Shown: piece by piece, positions 6,363 to 23,169 of the stretch
Numbering within the stretch: position 1 is the first letter of the stretch
Layout of the letters: the number at the start of each line of letters is the position of its first letter
From: Savagea faecisuis
GTDB lineage: Bacteria > Bacillota > Bacilli > Bacillales_A > Planococcaceae
Assembly (NCBI RefSeq): GCF_042675605.1
Contig: NZ_JBHTJF010000025.1
Span: 12,944 to 36,943 of the forward strand
Reading direction: 5' to 3'
Length of the DNA: 24,000 bases
The notes under the pieces: generated by a model
The model's input: only the letters and a program-made list of their open reading frames with translations
Database searches by the model: none
What the model was told of the DNA's origin: nothing
Made by a program: the position numbers and the translations under genes

Positions 6363-6723
6363 GGGGACGTTACGGATTCGACAGGGGTACTTGAGCTTGA
6401 GCTGCGCGTCGGAGGGATCGGCTCCGTCAGAAACGTCAAGCCAATAATAACTGGCAAACAAGAACAAAACTTAGCTTTCGCAGCGTAAGCTGACGAAACT
6501 GCCTTTACTGTCTATCGCCCATGTAGTACGGATAAAGGCTCAACTTTAGTGGGATACGTCTTTTCGCTTCCTTCTGTAGCGAGAGAAAGAGAATAATCAG
6601 AATAGCACGCGGGACGCCTTGATTGGTGGCATAACGACGTGTGAAATGTAAGTAATCAATCTACACGCGTAGACGCTTGGGTGGCAGGGCCTTTGGACGC
6701 GGGTTCGACTCCCGCCGTCTCCA
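6363..6723 (+). ncRNA. ssrA: tmRNA (SsrA)
   Basis: 5' end GGGGACGTTACGGATTCGACAGGGG and 3' end GGACGCGGGTTCGACTCCCGCCGTCTCCA (tRNA-like domain). The internal tag frame at 6453-6488 encodes GKQEQNLAFAA followed by a stop. Confidence 0.92.
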
Positions 6724-6738
6724 TACATCGTGATGGAC

Positions 6739-8872: not shown

Positions 8873-9241
8873 TTAATCCCTCTTTTCTTCCACCCATTTC
8901 AGTAAAGATGCTAAATCCTCATCGGAAATATGATCTGATTTATAAAGTGTATTGACCAAATTCAAAACAGACTTTTTATGATAAAGCTCCATAAAATGCT
9001 CCGTTTCAAAACCTAGGTAAGCCTCTTTTTCGATCAATGGATAGTAAAATCTCTCTTTACCTTGTTTTTCACTGCGAAGAAACCCACGCTCCGTTAATCT
9101 TTTCATAAGCGTTACGACCGTTTGGATTTTCCAGCCTTTTTCCTGACCGATTTGCTCCATGATGATTCCAGTTGTAATAGGTGGATGGCTTTCCCAAACA
9201 ATCTTCATCACTTCAAACTCTGTTTCAGGTAATCTTTTCAT
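8873..9241 (-). CDS. BlaI/MecI/CopY-family winged-helix transcriptional repressor, 122 aa
   Basis: MKRLPETEFEVMKIVW...ITTGIIMEQIG...WKIQTVVTLMKRLTERGFL is the typical penicillinase-repressor family N-terminal domain. The gene is paired with the M56 gene. Confidence 0.85.
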   Translation of the reverse strand: MKRLPETEFEVMKIVWESHPPITTGIIMEQIGQEKGWKIQTVVTLMKRLTERGFLRSEKQGKERFYYPLIEKEAYLGFETEHFMELYHKKSVLNLVNTLYKSDHISDEDLASLLKWVEEKRD

Positions 9242-9260
9242 GTATATTCCCCCTTATCCA

Positions 9261-9313
9261 TTTAAGTCAATTGTCTTAAATGTAAATATACAACTTCCTT
9301 AAATATTTTTCAA
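9261..9313 (-). promoter_or_regulatory. promoter plus palindromic operators of the blaI/M56 operon
   Basis: On the minus strand: TTGAAA (9313-9308), 17 nt, then TATATT (9290-9285). The 20-bp near-palindrome TTTAAGTCAATTGTCTTAAA (9261-9280) and the TGTA-n4-TACA dyad (9281-9292) overlap and follow the -10. The TACA/TGTA motif is typical of BlaI/MecI operators. Confidence 0.55.
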
Positions 9314-9769
9314 TCTTTTCCCACTGATTAAAGTAAATTCAACTTGGTATTGATACACCAGCTATCCCTCCATTCATTTTTTCTGGAGTATAGAAGATAG
9401 CGGTCACAACGTGCAAAGCGCTGTTTTTTAAATTTATTTAGATTTTTTTACTTGAAGGTGGTATTAACAAGTAGAAGATTTATTGCGAACAATGTTAAAC
9501 GAGGAAAAAAATCAGGCGAAATAATAAAACCATACTAAGTAATTTTAGCCGTACAGTTTTATGAAGTACTGTAATAGTGATTCTACAAAATTATAATTTT
9601 GTAATTCTGCACCAAATAAACAACACAATATAACCAAGCCGATAATCATAATCATGAAAATAAAAATCAAAGTGAATGTATAAATCATAAAAGAAAAATG
9701 GGAATCTGTTTAGCTGTAGCATTACAGATGTGAGGAATAGTTGTATATTGAAATACAATTTATTAAGAA

Positions 9770-10021
9770 TTGAAGGTGAAAACAAAAGAAGCCCTTGAAA
9801 ACGAGCACCTTTCAACACTTTATGCCAAACATAAAGCAGATATCGAAAGTGCGTTCGGTAATCTAAAGGTGACGCTCACACGATTCCTACCGCGTGGCTT
9901 ATTAAAGACCCAAACAGAGTTTTGGGTTGATTCCATGGCTCATAATTTGAGGAAGTTGGCGGGCAAACGCCTCGCCAATTCTTCCAATACAGCAAAGGTC
10001 CTTGCTACCTTTTTCGCTTAA
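9770..10021 (+). pseudogene. C-terminal fragment of an IS1182/IS5-superfamily-like DDE transposase
   Basis: ...ADIESAFGNLKVTLTRFLPRGLLKTQTEFWVDSMAHNLRKLA fits the C-terminal (E..FG.LK....F..RGL.K...EF.....AHNL.KLA) pattern of such transposases. No upstream catalytic domain is present. Confidence 0.45.
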
Positions 10022-10045: not shown

Positions 10046-10534
10046 TTAGTTATATGCGCCATTAGCATATATAAATAACGATATTGTACCCCCACCTGTT
10101 TTACCATTTGAACCAGTATAGGATACTGTAGAATTAACTTTTGCAAGACGAGTGTTGTTATCTATAATAGAAGTATTTGTTGCTTTCAAGTTAGAGCTAG
10201 TTGGTCTATAAAGTATCTCTGTTTTAGGTTTTGTAACTGCTACCACTTTTCCATCATATACAGCAGTTGCAGTTATTTTAACTGTGCCAAGTCTTGCATT
10301 ATTATAAAGATCAGTCATTTCAACGCTCTTAGATGGATATACTAGACCTCGCGTTAATGTAGGAAGAACTCTAAATTGAATCCCGTCAATTATGTAAACT
10401 TGCTCAGAATTATCTGAAATATTAATTTCGAGAAGGAAGCCTTCGTCTTCTAATTCTTCATTTTGTGCAAAAGCAGCTACTGGTGTTAGGATACATAAAA
10501 TCATTGTTAACATACTAATCAGCCATTTTTTCAT
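10046..10534 (-). CDS. secreted protein of unknown function, 162 aa
   Basis: Sec signal peptide (MKKWLISMLTMILCILTPVAAFA/QNE) and RBS AAAAAGGAGAG. I recognise no domain. Confidence 0.6.
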   Translation of the reverse strand: MKKWLISMLTMILCILTPVAAFAQNEELEDEGFLLEINISDNSEQVYIIDGIQFRVLPTLTRGLVYPSKSVEMTDLYNNARLGTVKITATAVYDGKVVAVTKPKTEILYRPTSSNLKATNTSIIDNNTRLAKVNSTVSYTGSNGKTGGGTISLFIYANGAYN

Positions 10535-10562: not shown

Positions 10563-10698
10563 TTGTATAACGGTTTGAAGCTTCCAGACTTTATCACTCC
10601 CTATCTTCTCCATCAGAATCCTGTCGTAATTGGAGGATTTATTTTCCCAAAACAATCTTCATAGCTTCAATCTCTGTTTCAGGTAACTTATTATTCAC
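10563..10698 (-). pseudogene. decayed 5' remnant of a second blaI-family gene
   Basis: GTG start at 10698 after GGGAGGT. The product NNKLPETEIEAMKIV parallels MKRLPETEFEVMKIV of the intact gene. An extra T (GTTTT vs GTTT) shifts the frame. After correction, WENKSSNYDRILMEKIGSDKVWKLQTV aligns with WESHPPITTGIIMEQIGQEKGWKIQTV. Homology ends about 30 nt before the secreted-protein ATG. Confidence 0.65.
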
Positions 10699-10706
10699 AC
10701 CTCCCG

Positions 10707-10759
10707 TTTAAGTCAATTGTCTTAGTTTGTAAGATACAGCTATCTTAAATGATTGTCAA
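10707..10759 (-). promoter_or_regulatory. second copy of the BlaI-type promoter/operator
   Basis: TTTAAGTCAATTGTCTTAG (10707-10725) matches 9261-9279 at 18 of 19 positions. On the minus strand: TTGACA (10759-10754), 17 nt, then TATCTT (10736-10731). Confidence 0.55.
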
Positions 10760-11054
10760 TATAGATTTGTAATAATAAATAAAAAAAGAGTATATTAAAC
10801 ATTTTTAATAAAAAGTTACAGTAAAATAAAATCTCTTATAAACTAGATAAAATTAGATGTGAGGTCATTATGGTTGTAATTGTTGTTCAAGGTCCATGAT
10901 GGGAGATTGAGTTTTGGGCCACGGCACTATTGATACTTGGAAAATTTATAAGTGAATAAAGATGGAGGATGCTAGTGAATTGGAAGCCCTTTTTAAAAAA
11001 TTTAGTGATTAAATTTATTTTTTTATACAACTCAAATACAAATAACGTTCCCCA

Positions 11055-11479
11055 ATGACACTTGAACTGCACCCCAATTTTAACGGTGAAATCATTACCT
11101 ATACAATTGGATCTAGACCTACGTATTCATTAGTTTCGGAGATGTTAGAGAAGACTTTGGAGAGATTGCCAGAGGAACATCAGCTACTGATGCATTCCGA
11201 TCAAGGCTGGTATTATCAAATGAAACAATATCGCCCTACTCTTAAATCAAGAGGCATTGTGCAAAGCATGTCTCGTAAAGGCAACTGTTACGATAACTCG
11301 GGGATGGAGAATTTCTTTGGCATTATGAAGTCAGAATTCCTCTACTTCAAGGAATTTGCGCGCATTTTAAAGAAGAACTAAAAAAATATATCAACTATTA
11401 CAACACGAAACAGATCAAGGCAAAATTAAAAGGCATGAACCCGATACAATATCGAACACATGCCCAACTAGCTGCCTAA
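11055..11479 (+). pseudogene. IS3-family transposase (OrfB integrase core), C-terminal fragment with frameshift
   Basis: NGEIITYTIGSRPTYSLVSEML...HSDQGWYYQ...SMSRKGNCYDNSGMENFFGIMKSEF is the IS3/IS150-type DDE core. The tail TKQIKAKLKGMNPIQYRTHAQLAA continues in another frame to 11479. An IS3-like right end ...GTGTCTAATTTTTGGGGGTCACTTCA runs to about 11512. The N-terminal two-thirds is missing. Confidence 0.75.
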
Positions 11480-12618: not shown

Positions 12619-13010
12619 AAAAGAACCTCCTAATTCACTTTAATCAATCAGGACTTAGTCATGAACGTCGTATTTAAAATTTAGAAATCAAATGTATAAA
12701 GAAGAGTTTAATATGTTATTTGGAAGCCTTTGTATAGAAGTGAATCTGTCTTCTGATGAAATCATTTAAAGGATGCTAGGTGATGAGAAAAGTAGCATTG
12801 CTTAATTATAAAGGGTTATCTTTAGAAACCGTTAGAGTATACATTGCAAGAGGAGAATATTTGATTAGCATTTTATAATGTTATAGCCATTCGAAGCTCT
12901 TATTCATTACAAATTTATTATTGAATTTGAAAATGCATATTTTCGTTGAATGCGGATCTAGATAATGATTTTCCCCTATCAAAACGCGATGGTAAAAGAA
13001 AGCTATTCAT

Positions 13011-13050
13011 TTTTAAGATTATACCTTATACTAGGACTATAATCTTAAAA
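13011..13050. promoter_or_regulatory. perfect 13-bp inverted repeat (candidate operator) containing a TATAAT box
   Basis: TTTTAAGATTATA (13011-13023) and TATAATCTTAAAA (13038-13050) are exact reverse complements separated by 14 nt, ending 7 nt before the 13058 ORF. Confidence 0.4.
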
Positions 13051-13057
13051 AGGTTGT

Positions 13058-13360
13058 ATGTCCATGATAATTAATATCAATCCTGATGTGATAGAAACTC
13101 AACTAGTAGGATTTGTTCCCGAGTGTATCATCAATTATTATGCCATTCAGTGTGCGAGCCTTGCAGTATATATGCCTCCAGGTGTTTTAAAACATTTAAA
13201 AAAGCGTGATTATTGGGATGATTTCCTCAAGTACTATCAAGATATACCTAGCATAATTGCAACACCTGATTATGCTGGACAAAATCCAAAAGAACCTAAT
13301 ACGATAGAAATATATAAAGGTTATTTGAGGTGGGAAAGGTTCCCCACGCGCTATCTGTAA
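13058..13360 (+). CDS. hypothetical protein, 100 aa; possibly the N-terminal part of a PBECR/Barnase-EndoU-like phage/ICE nuclease-family protein
   Basis: ORF with a weak RBS. The stretch GVLKHLKKRDYWDDFLKYYQDIPSIIATPDYAGQNPKEPNTIEIYK resembles (from memory only) the H-containing N-terminal region of small PBECR-type proteins. The last ~13 residues look unrelated. Confidence 0.4.
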   Translation: MSMIININPDVIETQLVGFVPECIINYYAIQCASLAVYMPPGVLKHLKKRDYWDDFLKYYQDIPSIIATPDYAGQNPKEPNTIEIYKGYLRWERFPTRYL

Positions 13361-13382
13361 AAATAGTTACCAGAGATCAGGA

Positions 13383-13410
13383 TTGCCGCCCTGCTGATAG
13401 CCTTTATAAT
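13383..13410 (+). promoter_or_regulatory. candidate sigma-A promoter for the RT leader/ncRNA
   Basis: TTGCCG (13383-13388), 16 nt, then TATAAT (13405-13410). A second candidate, TTGTAA (13667-13672), 18 nt, TATAAT (13691-13696), lies nearer the RT. Confidence 0.4.
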
Positions 13411-13545
13411 CAATAAGCCTCGTTCATTTATTATGAAGGAGGTATTTTATATTTTGTACTAGATAGTAAACAACAAAGTGTAAAATTTGCTTTTTATCCA
13501 CTTAAATGGGATAATATAGTTGTTCTGTGAAAATAGTCGCAGAAG

Positions 13546-13557
13546 TGTTGAGTTTCA
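13546..13557 (+). repeat. left copy of a 12-nt direct repeat (TGTTGAGTTTCA)
   Basis: Matches 13696-13707 (TGTAGTGTTTAA) at 10 of 12 positions, at an offset of exactly 150 nt. Confidence 0.5.
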
Positions 13558-13695
13558 CGCTTGTCAAGGTTATAAATATTTATAACCTCAACAAGCAACC
13601 TAGTGAAATCTACCAAGAACAGCACAAGCTGGATCTCTGAAGAAGAACTAGACAAACTTAGCAGCATTGTAATTACCTCCATATGGTAAGTATAA

Positions 13696-13707
13696 TGTAG
13701 TGTTTAA
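13696..13707 (+). repeat. right copy of a 12-nt direct repeat (TGTAGTGTTTAA)
   Basis: See 13546-13557; pattern TGTnGnGTTTnA. Confidence 0.5.
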
Positions 13708-13799
13708 GAACAAGAACTCCGTTTTATACGGGGATAGTGGTCAACAGAGCATTCATCTCGGATGAATGACACCAAATTAGGCTAGGAGGTTTTCTGGTT

Positions 13800-15203
13800 A
13801 TGAATCAGAGTAATGGACCACAACACCAATTACATAACCTCTCTAGCTCTTCTATTATTAAATGGGAGAAGTACAAGACTAAAGGTTATTTGCATTTTGA
13901 TGAACGGATACATATAGGGCATATGAAGGCTAATCTTTTGAATGAAGATTGGGTCGCTTCGTATGCTTTTTTACCGTTTATACATTTTGAGATGAATTCT
14001 AAAAGATATGTAACGATTAAAGAAGTGGATGAATTGGGTCAGGTAATTAAAAGAAAAGAACAAGGGAAGCCTAAAAGCCGTAAAATATTTTATGCTGCCC
14101 ATAAGGATGGCTACATCTATAAATATTATGGTGACTTATTAAACAATGCTTATAATAAATATGCAGTTGACAATCATATTGATGACAGCGTGATAGCATA
14201 TAGAAATAATAAACCAGGAAAAAACAATATTGATTTTGCGTTTGAAGTATTCAATCATCTGTTTAAGTTTGAAAATGCAGTAGTCATCACAAGTGATTTC
14301 ACTAAGTATTTTGATAACATATCACACCAAACATTGAAACAGAATATAGGAAGAGTACTAGGTGTAGAAACCTTAAAACGAGATTGGTATCAAGTATTTA
14401 AGAATCTTACACGATTTACATATGTCGATAGGAAAGATATTGATATGTTTTTAGAAGCAAAGCATGGAAGAACATTGAACAAAAAAATCAAGACATATAA
14501 AATTAATCGAATTATGACTTCAAGTGAATTTAGGACGTTTAAAAAAGAATATTTAAAACATAATCCCAATCCTGATTCTTATGGAATTCCACAAGGATCA
14601 AGTATGAGTGCAGTTTGTTCTAATGTACATCTGATTGACTTTGATAAAGAAGTAATTGACTGGTGCAATAAAAGGTCTGCTAATGCAATGTATAGAAGAT
14701 ATTGTGATGATTTAATAGTAATTATTCCTCTTGAAAGACAAAATACAAGAGAGTTTGAATCAATCCGAAATGAGTTATTTGAAATCATTGATAAATATAA
14801 AAGTGACGGATTAGATGTGCAACCTGAAAAAACAGAAATACGGTTATGGGATGGTGACTATATACTAGATGAGCAATTACAGCCATCTAAATTAGATTAC
14901 TTGGGGTTTGTGACTGATGGACAGATGATTCAATTAAGGGAAAAAAGCCTTTTCAATTATTATACTAGAGCATATCGCAAGGCCAAAACAGTAAAACGTA
15001 TTGAATATGCGACAGGACGACCGGGACCCAAAAGGTCATTGTATGATTTATACACCCATCTGGGATTCGATTACAAAAATCGTGGGAACTTCGTTACTTA
15101 TGCTTATAGAGCACATAGGAAAATGTGTCAGTTGCCAGTGAAGAGTCTGATTAAGAAGCAGGTTAAGAGGCATTGGGGCAAGATACATAGAAGATTAAAT
15201 TAA
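13800..15203 (+). CDS. stand-alone reverse transcriptase (defence-type UG/Abi/DRT-like), 467 aa
   Basis: RT motifs:
- SDFTKYFDNISH (motif A, residues 165-176).
- GIPQGSSMSAVCSNVHL (motif B, residues 262-278).
- RRYCDDLIVI (YxDD box as YCDD, nt 14700-14711).
- KTEI and YLGF (motifs D/E).
There is a ~165-aa N-terminal extension and a ~90-aa basic C-terminal tail. No maturase, endonuclease or other fused domain is recognisable. RBS AGGAGG lies 10 nt upstream of the ATG. Confidence 0.9.
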   Translation: MNQSNGPQHQLHNLSSSSIIKWEKYKTKGYLHFDERIHIGHMKANLLNEDWVASYAFLPFIHFEMNSKRYVTIKEVDELGQVIKRKEQGKPKSRKIFYAAHKDGYIYKYYGDLLNNAYNKYAVDNHIDDSVIAYRNNKPGKNNIDFAFEVFNHLFKFENAVVITSDFTKYFDNISHQTLKQNIGRVLGVETLKRDWYQVFKNLTRFTYVDRKDIDMFLEAKHGRTLNKKIKTYKINRIMTSSEFRTFKKEYLKHNPNPDSYGIPQGSSMSAVCSNVHLIDFDKEVIDWCNKRSANAMYRRYCDDLIVIIPLERQNTREFESIRNELFEIIDKYKSDGLDVQPEKTEIRLWDGDYILDEQLQPSKLDYLGFVTDGQMIQLREKSLFNYYTRAYRKAKTVKRIEYATGRPGPKRSLYDLYTHLGFDYKNRGNFVTYAYRAHRKMCQLPVKSLIKKQVKRHWGKIHRRLN

Positions 15204-15471
15204 ATTTTATTAATACCGAGGGAAAGAAGCCTTAGCAACAGGAAAATCTGACAATTACCTAGGATAAACATTGAATTTGTAATCGGTATTTCTATATGGG
15301 CTAAGACATGGATTGTAATCATTGTAACGACATTATTACTTTAGCCTAACACCACTAAAACATGAAGCACAACTGATCCTAAGTATGATTATAAGTTTTG
15401 GTGGAATAGCAATTTATCTTTGGATCTTGTCTAAAATAGAAAAAGTAAGTGAAAATTGACGATTACAAAGA

Positions 15472-15676
15472 TCGTACGAAGGAGACTTTACCTGCATGAA
15501 GTGCTCGCTCGTTATATTTGAATGGTTAGTGTAGTTGGAGCATTGCTCGTCGTGTTGTTTATTGGTTTAAGTATCCGGATGTTGTCTGTGAAGTGTGCGA
15601 TGGATGAAGAGTTCCGCTAGTGATTTATTGTTAAAGAGAAAGTATCAGTTTCTGAAAACAAAATTGGTGCTTTTCT
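15472..15676 (+). pseudogene. decayed copy of the small membrane-protein gene at 18938-19135 plus its terminator (copy 2 of the repeat)
   Basis: Aligns with 18925-19190. Differences from the intact copy:
- The start is lost (CTGCAT vs ATGAAT).
- CGA is changed to TGA at codon 10.
- A 69-bp in-frame deletion lies between two TTGCTC direct repeats.
- The terminator stem is degenerate. Confidence 0.75.
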
Positions 15677-15803
15677 CGTTTAAGTTTAGCTTTTTCATTA
15701 TTTTAGACATTTCGTGTCGATGGGATTAGGCAAGGAAGAACCATTTTCATTCTGCTCTAAACACTCTACTTTCTTTATTTTCTAAAAATTTAAATAAAAT
15801 CTG

Positions 15804-15832
15804 TTGACATTGTTAAAAAGACAGGATATGAT
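15804..15832 (+). promoter_or_regulatory. sigma-A promoter of the S-box leader
   Basis: TTGACA (15804-15809), 17 nt, then TATGAT (15827-15832). Confidence 0.65.
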
Positions 15833-15860
15833 AACAACTAATTTCATAAATTAACGATAA

Positions 15861-16023
15861 CTCTTATATCGAGAAGCGGAGGGACTGGCCCTGTGAAGCT
15901 TCGGCAACCATTGATTTTTTATCAAACGGTGCCAATTCCAGCAAGGGAAACCTTGGAAGATGAGAGGAGCAGTGCATATTTCGTATGACGCGACCTCTTT
16001 TTATATAGGGGTCGCTTTTTACT
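15861..16023 (+). promoter_or_regulatory. SAM-I (S-box) riboswitch with terminator expression platform
   Basis: CTCTTATATCGAGAAGCGGAGGGACTGGCCCTGTGAAGCTTCGGCAACC...GGTGCCAATTCCAGCAAG...GAAGATGAGAG matches the S-box consensus. A GCGACCTC/GGGGTCGC hairpin plus T-run follows at 15989-16023. Confidence 0.9.
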
Positions 16024-16061
16024 TTTAATGCACGTTCTACATAAAAGAAGGAGGGGTGTTT

Positions 16062-16205
16062 ATGGGAAAAGAAAAGGATGAAGTGCTTGCAATTATTGAA
16101 CAAGCCTTGCAAGAATTGCAGTTTGGAGAGGTTCATATTACCATTCATGAAGGACAAGTTGTGCAAGTTCATCGCACAGAAAAATTTAGAATATCCACGT
16201 CGTAA
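16062..16205 (+). CDS. YezD-like (DUF2292) small protein, 47 aa
   Basis: Not in the ORF track (<60 aa). RBS AAGGAGGGG, then ATG at 16062. The product MGKEKDEVLAIIEQALQELQFGEVHITIHEGQVVQVHRTEKFRISTS fits the G.V.I.vH.gqvvq...tEK.R pattern of YezD proteins, which are commonly linked to sulfur/methionine operons. Confidence 0.65.
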   Translation: MGKEKDEVLAIIEQALQELQFGEVHITIHEGQVVQVHRTEKFRISTS

Positions 16206-16227
16206 GAAGCTGACTAGACAACTAGAG

Positions 16228-16286
16228 GCCTCTTCGTTTGAAGATTTGTGCTCCTAAGCACGTCATCTTCATCGAAGGGGCTTTTT
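16228..16286 (+). terminator. compound hairpin plus T-run between the yezD-like ORF and metQ
   Basis: Outer stem GCCTCTTCG (16228-16236) / CGAAGGGGC (16273-16281) with one mismatch. Inner stems GAAGAT/ATCTTC and GTGCT/AGCAC. TTTTT follows at 16282-16286. The metQ ATG lies 25 nt downstream with no obvious promoter of its own. Confidence 0.5.
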
Positions 16287-16310
16287 ATATGGAGAAAAGG
16301 AGAATGCATA

Positions 16311-17141
16311 ATGAAACAACTACTAACATGGTTCCTCGTATTGAGTACTGTTCTTATATTTACAGGATGTGACGGAGAAGCAAAGGGTGAAACAAATCAA
16401 ACCATTACGATTGGAGCTACAGCTGGTCCATATAGTGATCAATTAAAAGAAGGAATCGCACCGATTTTAAAAGAGAAAGGATTCACGTTAAACATTATTG
16501 AATTTCATGATTATATTCAGCCGAATAATGCATTAGAAGAAGGGGATGTCGATGCGAATTTATTCCAAAACCGTTTATACTTATCGAATTTTAACGAGCA
16601 TCAAGGGACGAAGCTTACTGCGCTTTTTGCTGTCCCGACTGCTCCCATTGCGATGTATTCAAAACGACATCAATCGCTCGACGATCTTGAGCCAGGAATG
16701 ACGATTTCATTACCGAACGATACGGTGAATTTAGCTCGTTCGCTCAATATGTTAGAGAGCTACGGGTGGTTAACAGTTGATCCAAATGTTAACCCGATTA
16801 CAGCCTCTGAAAAAGATGTTATCGATAATCCGTATCATCTAAAGTTGAATCCGTTAGAAGCGGCAGCGACCCCTCGTTCTCTTGAGGATGCTGATTTTGC
16901 TTTCGTCAATGGAAATTATGCGATTGCTTCTGGATTGAAGTTGACAGAAGCAGTGGATGTTGAACAAACATCGGAAGATTTTTTAATTTATTTAACGATT
17001 CGTGAAGGAGAGGAAGATGAGCCGTTCGTTCAAGCATTAAAAGAAGCGTATGAATCGGAAGAATTTTATACTTATACACTAGAACATTCCCAAGGGTACG
17101 TCTTACCTCCATATCAACAAGAACAGGAGGCGAAAAAATGA
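16311..17141 (+). CDS. metQ: methionine ABC transporter substrate-binding lipoprotein (MetQ/NlpA family)
   Basis: ATG at 16311 after AAAAGGAGAA. Lipoprotein signal MKQLLTWFLVLSTVLIFTGC. NlpA-family body (IGATAGPYSD..., FVNGNYA). The stop overlaps the metN start (ATGA). Confidence 0.85.
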   Translation: MKQLLTWFLVLSTVLIFTGCDGEAKGETNQTITIGATAGPYSDQLKEGIAPILKEKGFTLNIIEFHDYIQPNNALEEGDVDANLFQNRLYLSNFNEHQGTKLTALFAVPTAPIAMYSKRHQSLDDLEPGMTISLPNDTVNLARSLNMLESYGWLTVDPNVNPITASEKDVIDNPYHLKLNPLEAAATPRSLEDADFAFVNGNYAIASGLKLTEAVDVEQTSEDFLIYLTIREGEEDEPFVQALKEAYESEEFYTYTLEHSQGYVLPPYQQEQEAKK

Positions 17142-18139
17142 TTGAAGTACGCCAAGTAACGAAACGATACGGTAATGTGCTCGCATTGGATGATGTATCG
17201 GTAACGATTGAACGCGGTGATATTTTTGGCATGATTGGCTACAGTGGAGCAGGGAAAAGTACATTGCTTCGTTGTTTGAATGGATTAGAGCAACCGACTT
17301 CAGGTGAAGTTATTATTGATGGCATCGACATTACAAAAGTATCTAAACGTGCATTGCGTCAAATACGACAAAAAATTGGAATGATTTTTCAACATTTTCA
17401 TCTTATTCAAACAAAAACCGTATACCAAAATGTGGCTTTTTCTATGAAGGTAGCTGGAAAATCAAATGCTGAAATTGCCGAACGTGTGCCAGAACTGTTG
17501 CATCTTGTCGGACTGTCAGATCGAGCGAATCATTACCCTGCTCAACTTTCAGGAGGACAGAAGCAACGAGTGGGAATCGCGCGAGCGTTAGCAAATAATC
17601 CAGATATTTTATTATGCGATGAAGCGACATCCGCTCTCGATCCGACAACTACAGCATCTATTTTGCAGCTTTTAAAGAAAATTAATGAAGAACTCGATAT
17701 TACGATTATTCTCATTACGCACGAAATGGAAGTCGTACAAACGATTTGCCATCGCGTTGCGGTAATGGAAGACGGGAAAATTGTAGAGGAAGGGGATGTG
17801 TATCATATTTTTGCCTCCCCCGAACAGCCACTGACAAAGCAGTTTGTTGATACTGTTCATTCATTAACATTGCCTGCTCGATTGTTAGAGGAGCGGACAG
17901 GAGACATTTTACAATTAACGTTTCGAGGAGATGATGCCGAGCAAGCAATCATTTCAAAGGCGGCAACTCGTTTTGCAGTTGATCTCAATATTTTACATGG
18001 ACAAATTACGTACATTCAAGATCGAGCGCTCGGAACGTTGATTGTCGAGTTGTTAGGTGAACCGAAAGAACGAAAACGGGCGGCGGCTTGGTTAACGGAA
18101 CGAACGAATCGATTGGAGGTGCTCGGCTATGCTAGTTAA
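17138..18139 (+). CDS. metN: methionine ABC transporter ATP-binding protein with C-terminal NIL domain
   Basis: Walker A GYSGAGKST, signature LSGGQKQR, Walker B ILLCDEATSALD, and a C-terminal NIL-type domain (...VDLNILHGQITYIQDRALGTLIVEL). Confidence 0.92.
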   Translation: MIEVRQVTKRYGNVLALDDVSVTIERGDIFGMIGYSGAGKSTLLRCLNGLEQPTSGEVIIDGIDITKVSKRALRQIRQKIGMIFQHFHLIQTKTVYQNVAFSMKVAGKSNAEIAERVPELLHLVGLSDRANHYPAQLSGGQKQRVGIARALANNPDILLCDEATSALDPTTTASILQLLKKINEELDITIILITHEMEVVQTICHRVAVMEDGKIVEEGDVYHIFASPEQPLTKQFVDTVHSLTLPARLLEERTGDILQLTFRGDDAEQAIISKAATRFAVDLNILHGQITYIQDRALGTLIVELLGEPKERKRAAAWLTERTNRLEVLGYAS

Positions 18140-20429: not shown

Positions 20430-20581
20430 GATTACTCCTTCCATTTCCTTTTTCTTCAATATACGTGGAATGGCTTGTGGAATCAAGAGAAGGGAGTCGT
20501 ACGCTTCATTATTTTTGACATCTCGTGTCAATGGCGTATCGTGTAAAGGGAAAGCTTAATTTTGAGAACGGAGGAATGAAA

Positions 20582-21595
20582 ATGAATGTAACAAATGAAC
20601 AAATTCAACTCGCACGACGTCCTGTCGGCACACCGGTGATGGAAGATTTTGCGTTTGTCGAAGCGCCGATTGCGTCACCTGAAGACGGCGAATTGCTTGT
20701 ACGCACGGTGTACGTGTCGGTCGATCCGTATTTGCGTGGTCGCATGCAAGATGCGAAGTCGTACATCCCACCTTTCCAGTTAGGTGAAGTGATCTCAAGC
20801 GGTGTCATTGCGCAAGTTGTCGAGTCTAAATCGGACCAATTCACAAAAGGAGACCTCGTCCTCGGCGCATTAGGGTGGCAACGTTATACGATTACACGTG
20901 CGGAAGCAGTGCGCAAAATTGATGCGTCAATCGAGCCCGTCACGCTTCACTTAAGCATGCTCGGGATGACGGGATTAACGGCTTATTTCGGATTGCTCGA
21001 TATCGGACAACCGAAAGAAGGCGAAACGGTCGTCGTCTCTGGAGCAGCTGGAGCGGTCGGTTCGACGGTCGGTCAAATCGCTAAAATTCACGGCGCGCGT
21101 GTTGTCGGCATCGCAGGAACAGCAGAAAAATGCGACTACTTAACCGAACAACTCGGTTTCGATGTGGCGATTAATTATAAAGAAGAAGAAGTGAAAGCTG
21201 CATTACGTGAAGCATGTCCAGACGGCATCGACGTATATTTCGATAACGTCGGGGGTACCATTTCGGATGCGGTATTCCCACTCCTCAACAAATTCGCTCG
21301 CATTCCTGTATGTGGCGCGATTTCGTCATACAATAACACGGAAGTCGAAATGGGCCCACGTGTCCAAACGGTACTCATTAAAACGAGCGCACTGATGAAA
21401 GGCTTCACAGTCGGCGACTACAGCGATCGCTACGGCGAAGGCTTAACAGCATTGACGACATGGTATAAAGAAGGCAAATTAAAATATGAAGAAACAATCA
21501 CAGAAGGATTCGACCACATCATCGACGCCTTCCTCGACCTCTTCAAAGGCGCCAACCTCGGCAAATCCATCGTCAAAGTCTCAGAGATTGAATAA
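20582..21595 (+). CDS. NADP-dependent oxidoreductase, MDR superfamily (YfmJ/CurA/leukotriene-B4 dehydrogenase type)
   Basis: ATG at 20582 after GGAGGA. The N-terminus NEQIQLARRPVGTPVMEDF...LVRTVYVSVDPYLRGRM and the GAAGAVGS cofactor motif are typical of this family. Confidence 0.85.
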   Translation: MNVTNEQIQLARRPVGTPVMEDFAFVEAPIASPEDGELLVRTVYVSVDPYLRGRMQDAKSYIPPFQLGEVISSGVIAQVVESKSDQFTKGDLVLGALGWQRYTITRAEAVRKIDASIEPVTLHLSMLGMTGLTAYFGLLDIGQPKEGETVVVSGAAGAVGSTVGQIAKIHGARVVGIAGTAEKCDYLTEQLGFDVAINYKEEEVKAALREACPDGIDVYFDNVGGTISDAVFPLLNKFARIPVCGAISSYNNTEVEMGPRVQTVLIKTSALMKGFTVGDYSDRYGEGLTALTTWYKEGKLKYEETITEGFDHIIDAFLDLFKGANLGKSIVKVSEIE

Positions 21596-21817: not shown

Positions 21818-23169
21818 ACTCACAATGAGCATTTTTAGATACAAATTTTACCACATAAAAAGAAACGATAGCCACCCTATGCCACAAATAGCTCTTTTTT
21901 GATTTGGTCCAGTGATGTGCCTTCTTGCGCTTCGTTGTACACAAACTCAATGATGCCGCTGAATTGGGCGCGTCTCATTTGGTGAATCGCGACTGAAAAT
22001 GGCTGAAGCTGGAGCGCACCGATGAGTAAGTAAGCGAATTGAATTAATAGCCAGTAGCGGTAAATCGCCCGTTCATGACGCACTTGAACGCCTTGAAAGC
22101 CAAGGTAGCCTTTCACTTGTTTGAAGTACGTTTCAATCGCCCAGTGTTCACTGTAATAATCGAGAATTTGTTGGGTAGACAATTCGGTATCTGTGCTTAA
22201 AAAACAGCGTAAATGCTTGGTTTCCATCGGTTCATTCGCTGGCCAACAGAGGACGACCACACCGCAATCTAAATCGTTTAACGCACCTTCATAGCGGTAC
22301 ACACGGTACGTTTCTTGCCCGACCGTCACGATATCGGTTTCTTGTGCAGAAATGTGTGTCGCAAATTGTTTGACCTGTGTGCGAATGCCTGCTGGATAAA
22401 TGATGCGATTCGTTTTCAGCGCACCGATGACATGCATGCCTTGCCCAAATGCCGCTTCGATGAGTGCCTTTGACGTATACCAACTATCGCATAACACATA
22501 CGTTGGCTGGGTGGCTTGTGGTAAATCTTGAATGAAATCGACCGAGAGCTGGATTTTACTTTCATCCTTTTCTTTTTGAAAATGACGAAAATCATACGGA
22601 AACGCTTGTTCACCTGATTTCATCATCACCTGCAGCACTTGGTGTCCCCAAACGACCTTGCCTTCCGTGTGTGAAAAATGGAATCCGCAGCCCTGAATCG
22701 GGTGCTGTGCCTGTGACGAAGGCTTCTTTTTCTTGGCAAGCGTATCATCGAAGAGCCAAAATAACGGCTGCTTCGGATCAATTTGGCGACGCACATAGCG
22801 CTGACATTGTTGCTGTAAATAGCTCTCGTTCCAAGGACTTTTTTGAAGAAAGTGACTCAGCGTGGTGCGGTGTTTCGGATGATGGCTATACGCATGAATC
22901 TGCGTAAGTTTTCCTGTAAATCCGATGCTCGACATGCCATCGATAAAGTGCGTAAAATGACGCAAAACAGGCTTCGAAAAGTAAAATGGCAATTGCCAAT
23001 CAGAAAACCCTTTGTTGATTTTTTCATGATGTGATAAACTGTTCATCAGACAGACGCTCCTTTGGTGAATGGTGGTGTAGGAACTTTCATTTTACCTAAA
23101 GGCTGGCGTTCTGTCTTTTTCTATTTTATTATATGGTAATTATTTGAAGTGAATTTACTCATTGTGAGT
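21818..23169 (-). mobile_element. complete insertion sequence (1352 bp), IS701/IS4-superfamily type
   Basis: 12-bp terminal inverted repeats ACTCACAATGAG (21818-21829) and CTCATTGTGAGT (23158-23169), with sub-terminal ACCA(C/T)ATAA matches. A single transposase ORF fills the element. Confidence 0.75.
21877..23046 (-). CDS. DDE transposase, IS701-family-like, 389 aa
   Basis: DDE-type signatures WLFDDTLAKK, VLCDSWYTS and HWAIETYFKQVKGYLGFQGVQVR, with an N-terminal region typical of IS701-like transposases. Family assignment is from memory. Confidence 0.8.
   Translation of the reverse strand: MNSLSHHEKINKGFSDWQLPFYFSKPVLRHFTHFIDGMSSIGFTGKLTQIHAYSHHPKHRTTLSHFLQKSPWNESYLQQQCQRYVRRQIDPKQPLFWLFDDTLAKKKKPSSQAQHPIQGCGFHFSHTEGKVVWGHQVLQVMMKSGEQAFPYDFRHFQKEKDESKIQLSVDFIQDLPQATQPTYVLCDSWYTSKALIEAAFGQGMHVIGALKTNRIIYPAGIRTQVKQFATHISAQETDIVTVGQETYRVYRYEGALNDLDCGVVVLCWPANEPMETKHLRCFLSTDTELSTQQILDYYSEHWAIETYFKQVKGYLGFQGVQVRHERAIYRYWLLIQFAYLLIGALQLQPFSVAIHQMRRAQFSGIIEFVYNEAQEGTSLDQIKKELFVA

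Follow-up and report, generated by a model that had tools for sequence, protein, structure and literature searches.

Within a 24,000-nucleotide stretch of the Savagea faecisuis genome (contig NZ_JBHTJF010000025.1, positions 12,944 to 36,943; hereafter the window), positions 13487-15203 very probably constitute a DRT2 (UG2) anti-phage system that is complete and operates like the characterized Klebsiella DRT2. The locus comprises a single reverse transcriptase (RT) gene and, directly upstream, a structured non-coding RNA (ncRNA) that contains a 150-nt template. If copied head to tail, this template would yield an antisense reading frame without stop codons, Neo, together with a promoter for it. 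DRT2 is among the most unusual of bacterial gene-expression mechanisms, in that the gene arises only once reverse transcription has joined copies of the template, and the sequence requirements of the Neo mechanism are all kept here, in a Bacillales clade whose RT is ~31% identical to the studied enzyme. The original prediction for this locus, a DRT2 (UG2)-type RT/ncRNA module, is borne out by RT profiles, sequence and fold and by hallmarks of Neo in 21/21 loci; the antisense Neo frame, the key feature of the leader, was missing from it.

The RT open reading frame (ORF) spans 13800-15203 on the forward strand and encodes a protein of 467 aa, with its YCDD box read as TAT TGT GAT GAT at 14700-14711. 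Protein length and the position of the box agree with those given in the original prediction, as does the domain content: Pfam recovers RVT_1 alone, with no maturase, endonuclease or effector domain. A placement of the RT against UG/Abi/DRT, retron and group II intron profiles had been proposed as a check. It returned the PADLOC Drt2 models at 451 bits (E = 1.2e-135) and 302 bits, and no other PADLOC model above 65 bits among the best 25 of 40 matches, with the Drt9 model at 48 bits. In NCBIfam, Drt2 (NF041746, "antiviral reverse transcriptase Drt2") is the best family by ~290 bits, at 356.8 bits. The only Protein Data Bank (PDB) sequences matching at E <= 1e-5 are chains of the Klebsiella enzyme, KpnDRT2 (9c0i and others), which align end-to-end (E ~1e-51) with 31% identity across 405 aligned positions, or 28% in the fold alignment. 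An AlphaFold2 model of the RT, computed with 21 homologs as input (predicted local distance difference test, pLDDT, 77), resembles 9c0i_A with TM-scores of 0.76/0.83 (E = 2.7e-31), followed by DRT9 with a TM-score of 0.41. Every column that is invariant in the 21 homologs is preserved in the window RT, which also carries a 24-aa N-terminal extension relative to KpnDRT2 that is conserved in its clade. By profile, sequence and fold, the RT is a DRT2/UG2 enzyme and a member of no other family.

Homologs with 50-98% identity occur commonly in Lysinibacillus, Solibacillus, Ureibacillus, Bacillus and their relatives. An RT 100% identical to that of the window, with identical leader geometry, is encoded on a 3.1-kb contig binned as "Erysipelothrix sp." (DATBUC010000059.1, locus L001); because all other close relatives are Bacillales, a binning error or a recent transfer is likely.

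The region preceding the RT, 13361-13799, contains no credible sense ORF, as originally stated, and its longest stop-free stretch on either strand is antisense (13497-13703, 207 nt). Structure in this leader had likewise been proposed, and the RNA 13522-13802 indeed folds at -86.8 kcal/mol, compared with -58.9 +/- 4.4 kcal/mol for shuffled sequences (z = -6.34; 0/200 shuffles as stable). Together with the RT ORF, its YCDD box and the lack of a sense ORF, this fold establishes the core observation as real. The leader is, however, not the single 440-nt unit that had been described: its first 41 nt belong to a skipping-rope RNA (13320-13401; see below), and the functional DRT2 ncRNA is ~280 nt long, starting at ~13522. 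The two promoters originally cited do each match the consensus at 10/12 positions, but matches of this quality occur at chance level in 13000-15900 (14 found, 14.0 +/- 3.9 expected). The first takes its TTGCCG from the final skipping-rope hairpin, and the second falls inside the template as the sense-strand mirror of the antisense -10 element. The promoter conserved in homologs is instead located at 13487-13515 (Table 1), where most homologous loci have a -35/-10 pair at the equivalent place in the alignment (TTGACT...TATAAT in L006, for instance). A consensus promoter scan made no call at this site; from the sequence we infer that it serves as the shared promoter of ncRNA and RT.

We collected 80 homologous loci and aligned the leaders of 21 close ones, a comparison that the original prediction had also called for. 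The aligned leaders share one order of elements: promoter, 5' hairpin, GTT, a hairpin containing TGTCAA, a poorly conserved middle, a block with the -10, GGAG and start-codon complements, GTTT and a 3' scaffold. Alongside these conserved blocks, RNAalifold detects compensatory changes in three leader helices. In the 5' handle, which is placed as the 5' handle/SL1 of KpnDRT2, 7/8 pairs show two-sided compensatory changes in at least one locus. The other two helices are those of the template hairpins (Table 1), of which the one that includes the -10 complement is the analogue of the KpnDRT2 "template hairpin" involving the -10 region. All three hairpins named in the original prediction are real, the first (13560-13596) as one of these covarying helices and the other two, in the 3' scaffold, folding as stated.

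For the 3' scaffold by itself, RNAalifold reports a single invariant 5-bp stem, a meager yield because MAFFT misaligns hairpins with variable loops. We therefore counted scaffold hairpins by per-sequence folding anchored on the invariant blocks in 17 loci. This gave a consistent order of an optional hairpin, GTGGTCA, a hairpin found in 17/17 loci and an invariant GCUAGGAGG. The optional hairpin is possibly the counterpart of the KpnDRT2 "tower", and GTGGTCA probably contacts the RT or engages in tertiary pairing. The conservation of the terminal GCTAGGAGG block in the aligned sequences exceeds what a ribosome-binding site alone would need. A UGUUGA/UCAACA pairing in the minimum free energy (MFE) structure of the window was rejected, as changes in L002-L004 do not support it. 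Separately, the CCUCC of the template (13676-13680) is complementary to the invariant GGAGG at 13785-13789, the RT's own ribosome-binding site ~105 nt downstream, and a long-range pairing linking the state of the template to RT translation is conceivable.

Table 1. Elements of the DRT2 leader in the window; the roles given for promoter, jump and Neo elements are predicted.
Feature	Position	Strand	Remarks
Candidate promoter of the ncRNA and RT transcript	13487-13515	+	TTGCTT (13487-92), 17 nt, GATAAT (13510-15); TG two bases 5' of the -10
5' handle hairpin	13523-13530 paired with 13537-13544	+	RNAalifold, 8 pairs
Template region, 150 nt (50 codons)	13552-13701	+	Begins with the GTT-1 jump motif, 13552-13554
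Neo coding unit	13552-13667	-	ATG 13667-13665, antisense to 13552, continuing at 13701 in the next repeat
Template hairpin carrying TGTCAA (complement of the Neo -35)	13559-13596	+	Covarying helix 13559-68/13587-96
Neo -35, TTGACA	13562-13567	-	10 nt from the template 5' end
Template hairpin, complement of the Neo start region and -10	13664-13698	+	13664-71/13691-98, eight pairs, compensatory changes at several
Neo ribosome-binding site, GGAGG	13676-13680	-	8 nt past the -10; the ATG follows 8 nt later
Neo -10, TATACT	13689-13694	-	7 nt from the template 3' end
GTT(T)-2, predicted jump acceptor	13702-13705	+	One unit length after GTT-1; ACA-2 is the KpnDRT2 counterpart
Variable, optional scaffold hairpin	13717-13733	+	Present in 10/17 loci with differing sequence and length; absent in 7/17
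GTGGTCA block of the 3' scaffold	13737-13743	+	Invariant or nearly so in the clade
Conserved 3' scaffold hairpin	13750-13768	+	Hairpin in 17/17 loci, stem sequences differ
Scaffold-end block GCTAGGAGG with the RT ribosome-binding site	13781-13789	+	Invariant in all aligned loci

GTT-1 and GTT-2 lie exactly 150 nt apart, and GTT-2 would, by analogy with KpnDRT2, act as the acceptor of the jump. A concatemer of the window unit has exactly one stop-free frame on the antisense strand and zero on the sense strand, and the circular Neo unit of 50 aa reads MLLSLSSSSSEIQLVLFLVDFTRLLVEVINIYNLDKRETLHYTYHMEVIT (grand average of hydropathy +0.48). Joining units head to tail places TTGACA 17 bp from TATACT, a promoter that is absent from the linear template, with the junction reading 5'-TTGACA AGCGTGAAAC|ACTACAT TATACT-3'. 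The predicted concatemer junction is 5'-TTGACAAGCGTGAAAC|ACTACATTATACT-3', and the predicted peptide across it is ...KRET|LHYTYH.... Conserved residues of Neo overlie the DNA elements (LDK at the -35, YTY/YNY at the -10), a coincidence that has also been reported for the Klebsiella Neo. AlphaFold2 models three Neo repeats as a helix-loop-helix array, which agrees with the published description and is to be taken as weak evidence.

This geometry is conserved in the close homologs. The GTT-1 alignment column is invariant, and GTTT(A/T)A is conserved one unit length later. The GTT...GTT unit measures 138-159 nt in 18/21 close loci; the strict rule fails for the remaining three, L019-L021, which have GT...GT 147 nt apart. 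Unit lengths are 138, 141, 144, 147, 150 or 159 nt, multiples of three throughout, and the window template, although it exceeds those of its closest relatives by 3 nt, keeps the frame. The antisense concatemers of 21/21 loci each contain a single open frame, compared with any open frame in 6.8% of shuffled units, and in 21/21 the junction brings a -35 and a -10 to a spacing of 17 bp. When the two hexamers were picked independently of each other, their distances to the template ends still summed to 17 in 17/21 loci, as 10+7 in nine and 9+8 in eight; such compensation over the junction is not expected of a conventional linear antisense gene. A GGAGG-type ribosome-binding site for Neo follows 8 nt past the -10 in most loci. 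Substitutions among close relatives are depleted at the second Neo codon position (108, compared with 182 and 199 at the other positions), which serves as supporting evidence only, because the compared pairs are not independent.

An unbiased scan of 13300-13799, covering every start and every length of 90-200 nt in multiples of 3, returned the 150-nt GTT unit as its top solution, with a score of 11/12, and no solution in the opposite orientation. Scores of >=11/12 were reached by 95/2496 control tiles (3.8%) and 12/12 by 2/2496; a threshold of 10/12 was uninformative because 27% of control tiles pass it, hence the use of >=11/12. Most regions upstream of RTs down to ~35% identity reach 11-12/12. 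Among the loci L023-L066, whose RTs are ~35-42% identical, the best-scoring units begin with other trinucleotides, most scoring 11-12/12 with a 17-bp spacer. GTG-initial units, mostly of 159 nt (range 156-162), come from Bacillus, Cytobacillus and Oceanobacillus (~41% identity), and GTA-initial units, mostly of 135 nt, from Lachnospiraceae and Roseburia (~40% identity). These GTG and GTA units are scan output, not curated alignments, and suggest a GU-initial jump motif throughout Firmicutes.

The mechanism that these features point to follows that of KpnDRT2. A single promoter would give rise to the ~280-nt structured ncRNA and the RT, which would bind the 5' handle and the 3' scaffold and reverse-transcribe the template 13552-13701. 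The AAC at the 3' end of the nascent complementary DNA (cDNA), copied from GUU-1 at the template 5' end, would re-pair with GUU-2 just beyond the template 3' end, thereby permitting another round of synthesis and yielding head-to-tail repeats. Upon phage infection the concatemer would become double-stranded, and each junction would then present TTGACA-17-TATACT, driving an mRNA with GGAGG, ATG and a frame without stops. The resulting hydrophobic Neo protein of 50-aa repeats would arrest the infected cell (abortive infection). The sequences themselves show the family of the RT, the conserved and covarying RNA structure, and the template geometry with its open frame and junction promoter, all conserved; the making of cDNA, the jump at GTT, triggering by phage, the toxicity of Neo and defence as a phenotype are expected by analogy with the Klebsiella system.

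Several observations weigh against this reading of the locus. Its basis is entirely computational, the characterized enzyme is just ~31% identical to the window RT, and the compared loci share descent, so that counts such as 21/21 overstate their independence. The NCBIfam score of the RT falls short of the NF041746 equivalog cut-off of 390 bits. This shortfall is a matter of the annotation threshold, with a model apparently tuned to proteobacterial members, and not of architecture. Given that score and the generic name that NCBI gives to homologs in the clade (just "reverse transcriptase domain-containing protein"), counts of Drt2 systems from this clade made by that route are likely too low in Firmicutes. 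The Neo -10, TATACT, matches the consensus at 5/6 positions. No ACA...ACA solution appeared in the unbiased scan, the published ACA bracket being replaced by GTT, with which the function of a 3-nt microhomology jump is plausibly retained. Neither RNAalifold nor the single-sequence fold yields a conserved stem resembling the Kpn SL2 basal stem, in which the region ahead of GTT-1 would pair with that of GTT-2. An SL2-like stem, like a pseudoknot partner for GTGGTCA, was also sought by eye and in the MFE fold; by eye, the SL2 position offers at best 3-4 A/U-rich pairs (UUGA 13548-51 with UUAA 13704-07). Confidence in the AlphaFold2 prediction for three Neo repeats is low (pLDDT 45), and it is usable for "helical repeats" at most. 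Finally, decayed genes of mobile elements abound in the surrounding island, and activity in vivo is therefore not to be taken for granted.

Some of these points would fit an RT and ncRNA that are related to DRT2 and make a single-copy or non-coding repeat cDNA, as in DRT9/DRT10, rather than a translated concatemer; the antisense ORF at 13494-13682 would then be fortuitous or an ordinary chromosomal small gene. Tang et al. found Neo harder to annotate in divergent DRT2 clades and raised "alternative mechanisms", and the distance of the RT from KpnDRT2, the GTT bracket in place of ACA and the lack of a clear SL2 stem are all in keeping with such a divergence. A linear coding ORF would, moreover, likewise force indels to multiples of 3. 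As a chromosomal gene, however, this ORF would have its -35 downstream of its start and ~120 nt from its -10, and the 17-bp spacing exists only over the junction, in 21/21 loci. A linear gene also leaves the compensating half-spacers (10+7 and 9+8) unexplained, and the stretch from GTT-2 to the start codon, which it would not translate, is nonetheless free of stops in frame. As the fold of the RT is in addition specific to DRT2 and unlike that of DRT9, we regard a product other than the translated concatemer as improbable. The odds are longer still for a decaying, non-functional DRT2 relic in a degraded AT-rich island. The neighbouring transposase fragments (9770-10021 and 11055-11381) and short PBECR3 nuclease ORF would suit a relic, as would the finding of no terminator-like site in 13000-15900, including the stretch 3' of the RT, and of no entry for the exact RT protein in the gene-position index. 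Yet the RT is full length and retains all columns invariant over 21 homologs, the template stays in frame despite its private 3-nt insertion, and the -35, -10, ribosome-binding site, ATG and both GTT motifs are intact; the same RT, without a single difference, also occurs on the independent contig L001.

Other RT families can be set aside with the greatest assurance. The RVT_1 core is common to all of them, and weak profile matches do exist to group II intron RTs (65 bits) and to the retron model St85 (43 bits). An Abi-type protein-primed, untemplated polymerase (AbiK, AbiA or Abi-P2), which the original prediction had kept as an alternative, is rejected by profiles and fold: no Abi model is among the best 25 of 40 PADLOC matches, and the RT has no extra C-terminal alpha-repeat/HEPN domain. 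Retron RT models give at most 43 bits against a cut-off of 235, and the group II model TIGR04416 gives 65 bits against 300; the retron and other UG models of PADLOC all trail the Drt2 match by the margin given above. Within the DRT2 leader Rfam recovers no RNA family, be it group II intron, retron msr or any other, the RT lacks the maturase and endonuclease domains, and its TM-scores to Abi, retron and group II classes are at most 0.55. Taken together, the Abi, retron and group II alternatives are effectively refuted, and a complete DRT2 system with a translated Neo concatemer is the reading that we carry forward.

The system lies at the right-hand end of an AT-rich stretch of ~6.7-15.8 kb, with 31-36% GC compared with 42-47% outside. 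The original prediction had placed it in an AT-rich island next to the transfer-messenger RNA (tmRNA) gene; the AT-rich stretch is confirmed and begins after that gene (6363-6726), but the DRT2 locus lies 7 kb away from it. In the Salinicoccus locus L005 a tmRNA gene (1643-2008) lies just 2 kb upstream of the homologous RT, and tmRNA proximity probably reflects ssrA as an integration hotspot. A search for a tmRNA-derived attachment-site (att) direct repeat bounding the island found none. Non-stop Neo mRNAs would be substrates of tmRNA. The stretch further contains a BlaR1/BlaI pair, the transposase fragments, an XRE regulator with DUF6773 and the PBECR3 nuclease ORF, and, generic helix-turn-helix (HTH) matches aside, no other PADLOC defence system. 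The ORF listing agrees with the claim that the RT has no co-oriented partner gene, whereas the decayed gene said to lie downstream is unconfirmed, 15204-15860 holding ORFs of 27-44 aa only. To the right of the island follow a strong, near-consensus promoter-like site, TTGACA-17-TATGAT (15804-15832), an S-adenosylmethionine (SAM) riboswitch (15861-15966, 94 bits) and genes for a MetQ-like lipoprotein and a MetN-like ABC ATPase (16248-18139), a methionine ABC transporter operon; these features (15804-18139) mark the resumption of the core genome.

Upstream of the DRT2 promoter, Rfam identifies the full-length skipping-rope RNA (RF02924, forward strand, 55.9 bits, E = 1e-12), which overlaps the end of a 100-aa ORF (13058-13360) whose product has the PBECR3 nuclease domain (Pfam E = 5e-9). 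Skipping-rope, an orphan motif, is reported with particular neighbouring proteins (PMC5737381); since 16 other DRT2 loci lack it, its position next to this one is incidental. Two further features lie elsewhere in the window. An abiF RNA motif (RF03085, 21654-21690, forward strand; 40.1 bits, gathering score 37) has an oxidoreductase gene (20525-21595) on one side and an insertion sequence (IS)-type transposase (21877-23046, reverse strand) on the other. No abiF gene lies close by, and the motif may be a leftover or a random hit of a model just 37 nt long. Within the AT-rich stretch, the start of a blaI-like repressor gene and its upstream region (9190-9314) are duplicated ~1.45 kb away at 10644-10760, with 77-88% identity, upstream of an unannotated 162-aa ORF (10046-10534, reverse strand) without a Pfam match. 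The duplicate has the look of a second regulatory region that has decayed.

Published work defines DRT2 by an upstream ncRNA of ~280 nt, ACA-1 and ACA-2 as brackets of the template, a unit length in multiples of three, an antisense stop-free neo, a 17-bp promoter formed only at the junction, and a ribosome-binding site plus a start codon after the -10 (PMC12039810; bioRxiv 10.1101/2024.05.08.593200). In that system, synthesis is self-primed from the ncRNA 3' end at a primer-binding site at the template 3' end and proceeds to rolling-circle cDNA, phage infection triggers the second strand, and Neo is toxic, causing abortive infection (PMC12039810; bioRxiv 10.1101/2024.05.08.593200). KpnDRT2 (Klebsiella pneumoniae, a class 2 UG/Abi RT; PDB 9c0i) and the window system have in common a single YCDD RT gene without extra domains, of closely similar fold (TM-score 0.76-0.83), and a same-strand ncRNA of ~280 nt directly upstream, which apparently uses one promoter together with the RT. 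In both, the ncRNA consists of a hairpin as 5' handle, a template of low conservation and a 3' scaffold that is structured and conserved. Both templates are bracketed by a repeated trinucleotide, have a length divisible by three and encode an antisense stop-free frame, with a 17-bp promoter only over the repeat junction, a ribosome-binding site and start just past the -10, and a hydrophobic repeat peptide predicted, at low confidence, to be helix-loop-helix.

The two systems differ in RT length (467 aa in the window, 425 in KpnDRT2, with the N-terminal extension in the window clade), in the bracket (GTT...GTT as opposed to ACA...ACA), in the unit (150 nt and 50 aa as opposed to 120 nt and 40 aa) and in the half-spacers, 10+7 nt as opposed to the 12+12 nt from the template ends described for Kpn. 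KpnDRT2 has an SL2 basal stem, whereas none is demonstrable in the window, and the window system belongs to a Gram-positive host with relatives of Bacillales type. DRT9 and DRT10 resemble it as class 2 UG RTs with a cis-encoded ncRNA template that synthesize repetitive DNA for defence. Unlike it, they are protein-primed and make non-coding products (poly-dA or short tandem repeats), and DRT10 requires a SLATT effector; the window template, by contrast, encodes an ORF and a promoter.

The presence of DRT2 and Neo in the Bacillales group is already published: while the analysis of Wilkinson et al. 2024 was confined to the 42 orthologs closest to Kpn (PMC12039810), and Tang et al. 2024 described Neo annotation as "more challenging" in divergent clades (bioRxiv 10.1101/2024.05.08.593200), Table S1 of the preprint (PMC11100668) includes loci from Bacillus and Lysinibacillus for which it gives putative ncRNAs and the entry "Neo identified = TRUE". 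The locus described here is thus an intact, unannotated further member, and its mechanism is not new. Our comparison with Table S1, in the preprint version, covers one row of the window RT clade, Lysinibacillus sp. A1 WP_082011579.1, which has a putative ncRNA and "Neo identified = TRUE" (PMC11100668 Table S1). Its RT is of the same clade as that of the window and clearly homologous at the N-terminus, as are the ncRNA blocks (the GTCTCC..GTGAGAG handle, AGTTTCG, TTAGCAAG, CTCCTTA, GTGGTCA and GCTAGGAGG). The published unit for this locus is 156 nt long, and its two-unit translation, ...RETS*NECY..., contains a stop at the junction (PMC11100668 Table S1); a concatemer of this unit has no open frame. 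The GTT...GTT rule instead gives a unit of 144 nt with one open frame, ...KLRNECYTYHKE....

What is added here, then, is a corrected junction rule, the GTT bracket, by which one published prediction loses its in-frame stop. Together with the 17-bp spacing, it provides exact and testable template boundaries and a predicted junction for Gram-positive systems. Whether Gram-positive DRT2 clades at large set the rolling-circle jump by a GU-initial trinucleotide, GUU, GUG or GUA depending on the clade, instead of by ACA/ACA, we hold to be an evenly balanced proposition. If they do, template boundaries would be set differently from those of KpnDRT2, in clades that seemingly lack its obvious SL2 stem, and a rule of a repeated GTN, a 17-bp junction spacer and a unit length in multiples of three would annotate Neo where the published pipeline struggled.

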